From Eledone cirrhosa (taxonomy: Eukaryota), in NCBI GenBank assembly GCA_964016885.1, contig OZ024752.1, positions 23,436,001-23,500,000 on the forward strand: DNA of 64,000 nucleotides. The letters are read 5' to 3'. Every line of letters begins with the position of its first letter. Within the stretch, counting starts at the first letter, position 1. Made by a program: the position numbers and the translations under genes. The notes beneath the pieces are model-generated. The model worked only from the letters and a program-made list of their open reading frames with translations, made no database searches and was not told where the DNA came from. Positions 1 through 33,173 of the stretch are shown here, piece by piece.

Positions 1-1988
1 GTTAATTTTCTCCCTCTCCTTCTCTTGCACTCTCGTGTCGAACGGGCAGGCCACATCCACAATCAGGCACGATCTTTTTTCTTTGTCCACAACCACCAGG
101 TCAGGTCTATTGTGTTCCAGTTTTTTGTCCGTCTGTATCCTAAAATCCCACAGCACCTTCACCTGACTGTTCTCCATCACCGCCTCTGGCCTATGCTCAT
201 ACCATTTCTCAGAATGTGGTAGATTGTTTACTTTGCACAGGTGCCAGTGGATCACCCTGCCCATCACATCGTGTCTCCAGCCCTTATAGTGGGTCTGGGC
301 TAGGTGTTTACACTCGGACACAATGTGAGCCACAGTCTCCTCTCTCTCTCCACAGATCCTGCACAGTGGGCTAGCCTCCTCCTTGTAGATATGGTGCTTC
401 AACCACTTCGTTTTGAGGGCCTGCTCCTGCGCAGCCATTAGCATTCCTTCTGTAGCCTTTTTGAGGTCTCCTCTTCTCAACCAGTTCCATGTCTGTGGAT
501 CTCTAAATTCAGTTTTCTCAAAGAAGGTACTATGAAGGGATTTTCCCTTAAGGCTGCTCTTCCTCCTTGATGTTATTTCCTCCTTGGGTATCCCCTGGCC
601 TACTGTCCCCTCCTTCAGTACAGCTCTGAGCATTGGCTCCTTACTATAGGTCACGTATTTGTATAGGTTGTTTTTCTCCATCTGAACACAGTCCTCTATG
701 CTTATAAGACCTCTTCCACCCTCAGATCTCCTTAGGTAGAGTCTATCGACATCACTCCTCTTGTGGAACATGTTGTAGATAGTCAATAGCTTCCTAGTCT
801 TCCTATCCATTTCTTTTTGTTCAGCAACATTCCATCTCAGAGTTCCCGCACTGTACCTAATAATAGACACAGCTCGGGAATTTACTGCGCTTATGGCATT
901 TCTGCTGTTCAGATGTGACTTCAATACGCTCCTTACTCTCCGAATGTATTCAGTTCTTAACAATTCCTTCATTTTTTTGTTCTTTATGCCATCAGCCTCC
1001 AGAACGCCCAAATACTTGTATCCTTCCTCAGAGTCAATTTCCTTTATCATCTCACCTGTTGGTATCTGGATCCCGTTACTTCTGCTCAACCTACCCCTCC
1101 TCATCACAATGACTCCACATTTACCAACACCAAACTGCATACATATATCACTGCTGAAAATACGGACAGTGTCAACAAGCACATCCAACTCCTTCTCACT
1201 TTTCCCGAAGAGCTTAAGATCGTCCATGAAGAGGAGGTGATTGATGGTAAGCTCTCCCCTTCCCAACTTGTATCCTGCTCTCACTTTTCGCAGCATAATG
1301 GTCAAGGGCATCAGGGCAAGGACAAACAACAGAGGGGACAGGCTATCTCCCTGGAAGATACCTCTCTTGATCTTCACGCTTCCCAAGGATACTCCAGTTG
1401 ATGTCAACTCTGTCTCCCAGGACCCCATACTCCTGCCCAGCAACTGTCTGATGTTATCTGCCACCCTGAAGATCTCCAGGCTTTTGGTGATCCAGGAATG
1501 AGGCACCATGTCAAATGCCTTTCTGTAGTCTATCCATCCCATGGCAAGATCAGTGTGTCTCCTCCTGCAATTCCCCATTACCATCTTATCAATAAGCAAC
1601 TGGTCCTTTGTACCACGTGACTTCTTTCGGCATCCTTTCTGTTCGTCCGGCAACAAGTTGTTTGTGTGGAGGTGATGGTAGATTTCCTCAGACACAATGC
1701 TCGTCAACAGTTTCCACATTACGGGCAGACATGTGATAGGTCTATAGTTGGTAACATCATTACCCTTGATTCGGTCTTTCATTATCAGAACTGTGGTACC
1801 TTTTGTCAACCACTCTGGCACCTCACCCGACACCAAGCAGTCATTGAACATGGCCGTCAGCTTCGGGTGGAGGGATGTTAAATGTTTAATCCAATAACCC
1901 TGCACACCATCTGGGCCTGGTGATTTCCAGTTGGTTAGTTTTTTGGCTTGCCCCTTAAGAGTTTCAACTTTGATACTCAAATCAGTCT
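1..1988 (-). mobile_element. Dong/R4-like REL non-LTR retrotransposon, family A, 5'-truncated; 3' end lies beyond the left edge of the window
   Basis: Near-identical to 11528..13515 of the full-length copy (offset 11527). Similarity stops at ...aaatcagtct, where (TTA)n begins. Confidence 0.92.
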
Positions 1989-2047
1989 TTATTATTATTA
2001 TTATTATTATTATTATTATTATTATTATTATTATTGTTATTGTTATT
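1989..2047. repeat. (TTA)n target/tail tract
   Basis: Pure tta run grading into ttg-tta units next to the family A 3' end. Confidence 0.95.
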
Positions 2048-3217
2048 CCTTGAATCTCAGTCATTGATGTTGGTTAACTGGAAAGTCCGTTGGATTGAAT
2101 ATCAAGCCACTACCTGCAGCCTCAGATATTCAGGACGTATCGGAGGGTTCTTGCTGTTCCAAGCAAGCATGCCTTTTGAAGCGTTCCAAAAAGCGTGAAG
2201 GGGCCGATTTTCTTTAACCATCCCTGGAAACTGTTGGAGATAGTCCCCAGTGCGCCTATGACAATCGGGATCACTTTGACTTCATGGCAGTTCCAAATCC
2301 TTTTCACCTCCCACTTTAGGTCCTGGTATCGGTTAATTTTCTCCCTCTCCTTCTCTTGCACTCTCGTGTCGAACGGGCAGGCCACATCCACAATCAGGCA
2401 CGATCTTTTTTCTTTGTCCACAACCACCAGGTCAGGTCTATTGTGTTCCAGTTGTTTGTCCGTCTGTATCCTAAAATCCCACAGCACCTTCACCTGATTG
2501 TTCTCCATCACCGCCTCTGGCCTATGCTCATACCATTTCTCAGAATGTGGTAAATTGTTTACTTTGCACAGGTGCCAGTGGATCACCCTGCCCATCACAT
2601 CGTGTCTCCAGCCCTTATAGTGGGTCTGGGCTAGGTGTTTACACTCGGACACAATGTGAGCCACAGTCTCCTCTCTCTCTCCACAGATCTTGCACAGTGG
2701 GCTAGCCTCCTCCTTGTAGATATGGTGCTTCAACCACTTCGTTTTGAGGGCCTGCTCCTGCGCAGCCATTAGCATTCCTTCTGTAGCCTTTTTGAGGTCT
2801 CCTCTTCTCAACCAGTTCCATGTCTGTGGATCTCTAAATTCAGTTTTCTCAAAGAAGGTACTATGAAGGGATTTTCCCTTAAGGCTGCTCTTCCTCCTTG
2901 ATGTTATTTCCTCCTTGGACATCCCCTGGCCTACTGTCCCCTCCTTCAGTACAGTTCTGAGCATTGGCTCCTTACTATAGGTCACGTATTTGTATAGGTT
3001 GTTTTTCTCCATCTGAACACAGTCCTCTATGCTGATAAGACCTCTTCCACCCTCAGATCTCCTTAGGTAGAGTCTATCGACATCACTCCTCTTGTGGAAC
3101 ATGTTGTAGATAGTCAATAGCTTCCTAGTCTTCCTATCCATTTCTTTTTGTTCAGCAACATTCCATCTCAGAATTCCCGCACTGTACCTAATAATAGACA
3201 CAGCTCGGGAATTTACT
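2048..3217 (-). mobile_element. Family A REL retrotransposon, heavily 5'-truncated (C-terminal ORF 2122..3217 plus 3' UTR)
   Basis: Encodes the CCHC finger (CKICGEREETVAHIVSEC), RHD and the PD..D REL motif. Same 3' UTR as the other A copies. (TTA)n on both sides. Confidence 0.92.
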
Positions 3218-3260
3218 ATTATTATTATTATTATTGTTATTATTATTATTATTATTATTA
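3218..3260. repeat. (TTA)n target/tail tract
   Basis: tta run between a family A 5' truncation point and a family B 3' end. Confidence 0.95.
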
Positions 3261-32896: not shown

Positions 32897-32958
32897 TAAT
32901 TATTATTATTATTATTATTATTATTATTATTATTATTATTATTATTATTATTATTATT
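32897..32958. repeat. (TTA)n target tract
   Basis: Direct reading of the sequence. Confidence 0.95.
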
Positions 32959-33061
32959 AATCCTGCCGAGGTTAACTTTGCCTTTCATCCTTATGGGCTC
33001 GATAAAATAAAGTACCAGTAATGTACTGGGTAATTGCTGGCCTTGTGCCTAAAGTAGAAAT
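32959..33061 (+). mobile_element. tRNA-derived SINE, 5'-truncated, inserted in the TTA array in Tx1 orientation
   Basis: gccgaggttaactttgcctttcatcc...taccagtaa...ggccttgtgcctaaagtagaaa followed by a degenerate TTA tract. Confidence 0.88.
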
Positions 33062-33087
33062 ATTAATAATAATTATTATTATTATTA

Positions 33088-33173
33088 CAGTTGCATTTAT
33101 CTTGCTTTATGTTCATACGAATTATCACCAAGTCAAACCAGTGACCTCAAGTGACAACAAGGTCCGCCATGTT
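33088..33173 (-). mobile_element. Family B extreme 3' end (86-bp remnant)
   Basis: cagttgcatttatcttgctttatgttcatacg...aaggtccgccatgtt matches 15289..15375. Preceded by tta repeats. Confidence 0.88.

Follow-up and report, generated by a model that had tools for sequence, protein, structure and literature searches.

The question raised by the first 33 kb of a 64,000-nucleotide stretch of the Eledone cirrhosa genome (contig OZ024752.1; G000:C12:23,436,001-23,500,000 in a 3.0-Gb assembly of 1,796 contigs), hereafter the window, is how eleven retrotransposons came to lie end to end in (TTA)n repeats with two unrelated nuclease classes of long interspersed nuclear element (LINE) pointing in opposite directions. 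Self-BLAST of the window and mapping of an element library place 11 consecutive elements over positions 1-33,173, namely five copies of family A, three of family B, one each of families C and D, and one short interspersed nuclear element (SINE). (TTA)n is present at 10/10 internal junctions, with 5-33 perfect units at each and some TTG or ATA variants; there is no unique DNA between elements, and the array holds 186 perfect TTA units in all. The copies of A and B, which encode a restriction-like endonuclease (RLE), are all on the minus strand (8/8), and C and D, which encode an apurinic/apyrimidinic endonuclease (APE), are on the plus strand together with the SINE. The explanation we favor, and consider quite probable, is that the window contains one long case of a kind of nested LINE array found at dispersed sites, in which Dong-like RLE elements (A and B) enter antisense to (TTA)n tracts and Tx1-like APE elements (C, D, and a further family, F) enter those tracts in sense orientation, likely because the strand used for nicking and priming differs between the classes, with each insertion leaving repeat on both sides as new target. 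The features of the array, in which RT denotes reverse transcriptase, ORF open reading frame and UTR untranslated region, are the following.

1 to 1988, minus strand: A1, 5'-truncated Dong-like RLE LINE of family A; its last 297 bp lie left of the window and are followed by (TTA)33
1989 to 2033, plus strand: (TTA)15 junction A1/A2
2034 to 3217, minus strand: A2, 5'-truncated family A, 3' 1.18 kb
3218 to 3260, plus strand: (TTA)5-TTG-(TTA)8 junction A2/B1
3261 to 5284, minus strand: B1, 5'-truncated Dong-like RLE LINE of family B, with RT, CCHC and RPD..D
5285 to 5305, plus strand: (TTA)7 head-to-head junction B1/C
5306 to 11205, plus strand: C, full-length Tx1-like APE LINE, with ORF1 zinc knuckle and an APE-RT-CCHC ORF2 that is interrupted here
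11206 to 11229, plus strand: (TTA)8 tail-to-tail junction C/A3
11230 to 15234, minus strand: A3, family A, single uninterrupted ORF at 11318-14743 (possibly Myb-like N-terminus, RT, CCHC, RLE), with ~860 bp of 5' UTR missing
15235 to 15288, plus strand: (TTA)18 junction A3/B2
15289 to 20326, minus strand: B2, full-length family B, ORF split in three pieces
20327 to 20440, plus strand: (TTA)33-ATA-(TTA)4 junction B2/A4
20441 to 23703, minus strand: A4, 5'-truncated family A
23704 to 23730, plus strand: (TTA)9 head-to-head junction A4/D
23731 to 29557, plus strand: D, full-length Tx1-like APE LINE, with uninterrupted ORF1 (zinc knuckle) and ORF2 (APE, RT, CCHC)
29558 to 29602, plus strand: (TTA)15 tail-to-tail junction D/A5
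29603 to 32899, minus strand: A5, 5'-truncated family A
32900 to 32959, plus strand: (TTA)20 junction A5/SINE
32960 to 33063, plus strand: 5'-truncated copy of an abundant ~186-bp SINE
33064 to 33087, plus strand: (TAA)3(TTA)5 junction SINE/B3
33088 to 33173, minus strand: B3, 86-bp 3' remnant of family B, whose 5' break without TTA is the right border of the array

This anatomy agrees with an earlier sequence-only reading of the window, which had described at least 11 insertions in a row with (TTA)n junctions and no unique DNA between them. Its estimate of at least 33 kb also stands, the array totaling ~33.6 kb, but the array is bounded on both sides. On the left it starts 396 bp outside the window, where A1 ends at -297, (TTA)33 occupies -396 to -298, and a TTC run of ~21 units lies farther left, followed by ~1.7 kb of other DNA and then a 27-bp satellite; a much longer leftward array is therefore rejected. 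The right border carries no TTA, as the B3 remnant is joined directly to a 74-bp hairpin and to a GIY-YIG fragment of Penelope-like type.

The opposite polarity of the two nuclease classes, also proposed in that reading, extends well beyond this locus. At 329 de-duplicated tracts of at least 5 units in fetched loci, 5' junctions of RLE elements are antisense to TTA in 113/114 cases and those of Tx1-like elements are sense in 116/116, in counts that presuppose a tract and come from loci selected by way of these same families. Eight rows are discordant: three are SINEs, two are SINE tails mislabeled as B, two are the halves of one inverted A copy (L078), and one is another A copy (L221). The same polarity at single tract-element junctions throughout the genome also bears on whether the order of elements in the window is an artefact of assembly, joined through microsatellites and young repeats, which we regard as hardly credible. 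Such an error would be favored by elements that are 98-100% alike genome-wide, and none of the short contigs of sequencing reads spans the array, so its order at this locus is unconfirmed by that route; however, the window sequence contains zero Ns, and the five A copies of the array are distinct, with differences of 2-18 substitutions per 1,160 nt and truncation points that are all different, which argues against a duplicated assembly. A high copy number of D is shown independently by the depth of short-read contigs, which is ~1,900-2,000 for D ORF1 versus ~10 for unique DNA.

Clustering of the elements is equally evident elsewhere. On contig C1, the 175 A and C ends listed form 35 neighbor pairs within 10 kb versus 3.5 expected under uniform placement, with a maximum of 10 in 2,000 draws, and thus the clustering is not due to chance. 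The two members of a pair are on the same TTA strand in 34 of these 35 pairs, including 9/9 mixed pairs, and in 39/44 pairs at 20 kb. Five other loci, chosen for multiple hits, contain arrays of ~19-29 kb, 4/5 of them mixed, and pure head-to-tail tandems of full-length D with ~5.84 kb spacing are found as 10 copies over more than 52 kb at C1:423,367,690-423,420,190 and as 4 copies at C4:157,081,430-157,104,806. The array in the window is long but otherwise typical of a class that is dispersed, and the earlier notion of a special safe-harbor locus was rejected, as such arrays occur elsewhere in the genome. The claim that arrays grow by nesting, on the other hand, is upheld by the clustering, by the other arrays, and by the element ends found upstream of Tx1-like copies (below). 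Growth chiefly by unequal recombination or gene conversion, with TTA tracts and repeated LINE bodies as the substrate, in place of serial insertion, is very improbable as a general account. The near-identical D tandems of 4 and 10 copies would suit it, as would chimeric F/C and C/D copies, and it may account for the pure D tandems, but not for the mixed arrays: each A copy in the window array has its own truncation point and its own 2-18 differences, and no multi-element block is repeated there.

Families A and B are both Dong-like. The A3 ORF encodes 1,141 aa from stop to stop, with an RVT_1 domain, a CCHC knuckle and the RPD..D motif of the nuclease; the best solved relatives of this protein are R2 proteins. 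These motifs recur in family B, whose identity to A in the RT-RLE region is 39%; the sequence motifs recorded are CRICx7HIVSEC / CRVCx7HIISMC and RPD..D. A CCHC-type motif before the RT was not found in A3, and none was seen in the N-termini of A3 and B2. The N-terminus of A3 is modeled as four helices (predicted local distance difference test score of 83-94 over residues 11-80), and the top rows returned by VIA-align for it are mostly Myb/SANT domains and include Sap1, Zeste, GT-1, ISWI SANT, TRF/Tbf1 Myb, and the R2 protein, at Z scores of only 4.7-5.9; a Foldseek search with the same model gave no significant match. Homologue searches returned unnamed close relatives of A with up to 64% identity and no sequence named Dong or R4. 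No Rfam match to a hepatitis delta virus (HDV)-like ribozyme was obtained at the 5' ends, and a home-made descriptor, run without a positive control, found none. Judged by these sequence features, A and B fit the description of the (TAA)n-targeting R4/Dong clade. Two further observations concern their 5' regions. The first ~350 nt of A and B (B2, window 19980-20326; genomic A 5' ends) are 77% similar in spite of the 39% identity of their proteins, possibly reflecting a shared or swapped promoter or other 5' element, and a 46-nt SINE 3' fragment is present inside the B2 5' UTR (window 19332-19377) in the same sense as B.

An exact 37-mer from the A 3' end occurs 3,948 times in the genome, and the first 30 occurrences in genome order were sampled. 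The 5' break fell within the locus in 13 of these 30, and 12/13 of these truncated junctions meet TTA; among longer A copies the 5' end meets TTA in 29/29, one row being read from the printed sequence. For B, the 5' break was in view in 15/30 sampled copies, with TTA at 12, (AAT)4 at 1, and 2 unresolved. A truncated end cannot carry a repeat leader from the element's own 5' end, and the TTA at these breaks therefore indicates target specificity.

Families C and D have two ORFs. D ORF2 contains Exo_endo_phos, RVT_1 and zf-RVT domains and has human L1 ORF2 as its best solved match (E 2.5e-57), and ORF1 of both C and D contains a zinc knuckle of the form CX2CX4HX4C; a CCHC zinc knuckle in ORF1 is a feature of the Tx1 clade. 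In family F, a distinct 5' half, made up of the UTR/ORF1 region, gives way at a fixed position to the ORF2 and 3' end of family C; F was seen in three fetched loci (L272, L268, L286) and at C1:26,002,037 and 26,013,170, with its 5' start following (TTA)n in 8/8 cases at tracts. We call C, D, and F Tx1-like by domain layout, from a homologue set that contained no named Tx1 reference. The closest relative of D is unnamed, at 78% identity, and the next is at ~42%; a metagenome scan for relatives gave three short, distant loci without useful flanks. The sequence-only reading had four families converging on one microsatellite. C and D are 77% identical in nucleotide and 73% in amino acid sequence in ORF2, and Dong-like elements, among which A and B are both counted, were already known to target (TAA)n as a rule, so the four convergences reduce to two lineages.

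Full-length 5' ends of C number at least 1,785 in the genome and those of D at least 324, and among those listed 100/100 of each follow TTA. DNA-search samples give the same result, with TTA preceding the 5' end in 30/30 C and 30/30 D copies, each set including the copy in the window. When D was sampled by its 3' end (n=20), 18 copies were full-length with TTA, 1 was truncated, and 1 lay at a gap; among 20 extended C loci, 15 were full-length with TTA, 1 started at base 24, 3 were F-type chimeras, and 1 was a repeat pick. The full-length C and D copies thereby show one sequence type in far more than the >20% of flanks used to define a target in PMC4494074. Upstream of the 5' tract lies the end of another family member in 23/30 D copies (one a weak match) and 26/30 C copies. 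The tails in front of D copies (n=30) belong to the SINE in 5, C in 5, and D in 8, two of the D-like tails being only 77-81% identical, and SINE tails precede 2/30 C copies. D 5' ends are themselves 99-100% alike, and young Tx1-like copies thus lie directly behind more diverged SINE and LINE tails. Truncated Tx1-like copies that start at a TTA tract make up 19 rows, representing ~17 distinct places.

Several observations weigh against the reading that both classes target the tracts, in addition to the conditioning of the polarity counts and the absence of a spanning contig noted above. Among RLE elements, one A copy is sense beside a tract (L221), another contains an internal inversion broken near 3376/3405, its halves being separated by a repeat tract (L078, which resembles a twin-priming product), and the B copy with (AAT)4 at its 5' break has the opposite polarity (L229). 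Among Tx1-like elements, truncated copies sampled without conditioning are looser: for C, TTA is found at 3 clear breaks and 1 degenerate break of 7 true breaks (the eighth being an internal deletion), and for D, 0/2 breaks are in pure tract, one of them having a 14-nt duplication starting with TTA. Pooled, only 3-4/9 truncated copies have TTA at the 5' break. In one case among 45 inspected by eye, the D 5' end of L172, a ~21-nt duplication is accompanied by 11 further bases in TTA phase, and since these extra repeat bases point to a carried leader, the counts of 100/100 may in part reflect such a leader and are not pure target evidence. The link of both LINE classes to (TTA)n thus holds for the sampled genomic copies, but a strict specificity of the Tx1-like elements does not.

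These points raise the alternative that the Dong-like elements alone are true tract-targeters, and that Tx1-like elements insert at any short TTA motif, as the SINE does, carry (TTA)n at both ends of their RNA, and merely supply target, with polarity a by-product of their own ends. The extra TTA in L172, the 5/9 truncated C/D copies without a tract, the fact that D 5' tracts are never below ~4 units, and the behavior of the SINE, which has a similar 3' end and uses only a short TTA match, are all in keeping with it. Random insertion at short TTA motifs would, however, seldom meet the tail of an element, and this is where young D copies are repeatedly found, behind tails of the SINE (5/30), C (5), and D (8, including the two at 77-81% identity); the ~17 truncated copies that start at tracts also speak for targeting. 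We therefore consider non-targeting Tx1-like elements improbable, and return to the reading in which both classes use the tracts. Targeting by Tx1-like elements is supported independently of the leader by the upstream element ends and by the truncated copies at tracts.

The SINE behaves differently. Proposed earlier as a tract-targeter, it has an upstream tract in only 1/30 genomic and 1/11 window copies, and a tract-specific role for it was rejected on that ground. The 11 window copies comprise 6 plus and 5 minus, the array copy being the only one that follows a tract. Among the 30 genomic copies, the 3' flank starts with TTA in 29/30, and 18 have target duplications, 15 of which are in TTA phase; judging from these flanks, a short TTA match, in the polarity of the Tx1-like elements, is what the SINE requires. 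Its last ~28 nt resemble the 3' ends of C, D, and an older copy, E (window 11161-11205, 29513-29557, 42784-42828, 63065-63109). This likeness suggests, as a lead only, a Tx1-like partner LINE, the predicted fold of the SINE differing from theirs. The likely role of the SINE is that of a passenger that supplies new tails, and not that of a targeter. Two SINE fragments also lie head to head at window 41672-41947, forming a 276-bp palindrome of 96% identity.

The polarity of the two classes can be placed in a common scheme. Target-primed reverse transcription starts with a nick in the strand antisense to the element, and A and B, with (UAA)n tails, would therefore nick the TTA strand, and C, D, and F, with (UUA)n tails, the TAA strand. 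We infer opposite-strand nicking by the two classes on this basis. The primer would pair with the element's own repeat tail, and tail pairing and nuclease preference together could lock the polarity. Target duplication plus tail would then leave repeat on both sides, enlarging the stock of repeat. More weakly, full-length Tx1-like RNA may carry a few 5' TTA units that anneal to the upstream target; such annealing of a 5' repeat leader would favor full-length, seamless insertions in tracts and could explain the many full-length copies. The SINE, as a likely Tx1-driven passenger that needs only a short TTA match, would seed new tracts with its tail. The head-to-head and tail-to-tail layout might, as the sequence-only reading suggested, also give rise to antisense or double-stranded transcripts, in the manner of a piRNA cluster.

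Comparison with known systems shows what is familiar here. The available text of PMC7998251 describes Dong as targeting (TAA)n in insects, molluscs, and cnidarians, and as having RT and RLE, a diverged Myb, and no zinc fingers. Like Dong of Bombyx, DongAg, and DongBg (PMC7998251 and PMC3812793, as far as their available sections describe these), A and B have a single ORF that encodes RT, CCHC, and RLE, with a possibly Myb/SANT-like N-terminus that lacks a zinc finger, and carry sense-strand (TAA)n at either end. Unlike what the available sections report for R4/Dong, A and B combine 39% identity in the RT-RLE region with a 77% similar 5' end, and share their tracts with APE elements. Bombyx Dong has an HDV-like ribozyme (PMC3774820, in part), whereas a crude scan without a positive control found none in A and B. 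The same partial source describes how upstream target carried on R2 RNA gives uniform 5' junctions, with annealing proposed. The microsatellite targets named for Tx1 in the accessible parts of PMC4494074 and PMC3812793 are (TC)n, (TTC)n, (TTCC)n, and (TTTC)n, and C and D share with Kibi (TC)n, Koshi (TTC)n and the crocodilian (TTCC)n/(TTTC)n elements two ORFs, a zinc-knuckle ORF1, an L1-group APE-RT-CCHC ORF2, and a pyrimidine-rich microsatellite on the sense strand (PMC4494074, available sections). Unlike them, C and D target (TTA)n, belong to an invertebrate lineage, and are looser in truncated copies, in a comparison drawn by layout. The Bombyx telomeric elements TRAS1 and SART1 likewise enter one simple repeat in opposite directions, but, according to the parts of PMC7265360 consulted, both are APE elements of the R1 clade, with swappable endonucleases, and use telomeric repeats only; here, one interspersed microsatellite is used by both an RLE and an APE lineage at thousands of sites, and is regenerated by the tails of these elements. 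The comparisons with Dong and with TRAS and SART made in the sequence-only reading were thus apt, insofar as these partial sources (PMC7998251, PMC7265360) describe them.

In Octopus vulgaris, Dong-R4 is the most numerous recently active LINE group (PMC13282606, Table 1), and hotspots of transposable elements (TEs) have been reported in a main text from which the words "target" and "nested" are absent (PMC13282606). Surveys of cephalopod and mollusc repeats find Dong-R4 and L1-Tx1 present, expanded, or active, with no target analysis in the portions available (PMC13282606, PMC8967140, PMC10294476); further background, also from partial texts, is given in PMC4640811, PMC4758252, PMC7650587, PMC3747384, and PMC5678591. 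A (TTA)n Tx1 family or mixed Dong/Tx1 arrays were not found in the literature searched; Repbase, Kojima and Fujiwara 2004, and Figure 3 and the supplements of PMC4494074 lay outside that search and may list such a target. Dong at (TAA)n, Tx1 targeting of microsatellites, and opposite entry into one repeat are therefore already known, and the (TTA)n-preferring Tx1-like lineage and the mixed RLE/APE arrays are apparently new with respect to that literature.

The surroundings of the array are of other kinds. The 27-bp satellite begins ~2.1 kb left of the window, where 293 copies fill positions 1-7880 of the adjoining locus (L031), and it probably runs for tens of kb; the loci farther left (L032-L036) have the same GC content and no LINE or SINE matches. 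To the right, fragments with a hairpin, a GIY-YIG-like end, and RT-like ORFs lie at window 33169-33450, 34103-34954, and 45770-47656, one of which cuts off B3; we take them to be Penelope-like from their motifs, with no Pfam match. Older Tx1-like copies, 72-87% identical to C/D and with TTA tails, are located outside the array at ~57800-63110 (plus) and 63321-64000 (minus). Scans of the window for tRNA genes and with Rfam gave no matches.

For LINE biology, the pattern known from TRAS and SART, opposite entry into one repeat, is extended here across the deepest LINE split, that between RLE and APE, and is moved from telomeres to an interspersed microsatellite that is renewed by the elements themselves. 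Apparently young, intact elements (the A3 ORF, and ORF1 and ORF2 of D) come with thousands of natural junctions, a set that allows nuclease preference to be weighed against RNA-tail pairing in setting orientation, and allows one to ask why most D copies are full-length (18/20). Tentatively, and as something we would not yet call probable, we propose that a new (TTA)n-preferring Tx1-like lineage and the (TAA)n Dong elements form a cross-class, mutually feeding community, in which unrelated nucleases would cut opposite strands, insertions and SINE tails would make new target, and a repeat leader on the RNA would drive mostly full-length integration. Thousands of the resulting self-extending arrays would put sense and antisense LINEs end to end, offering a sequence-level mechanism that may explain part of the TE hotspots of octopus genomes.

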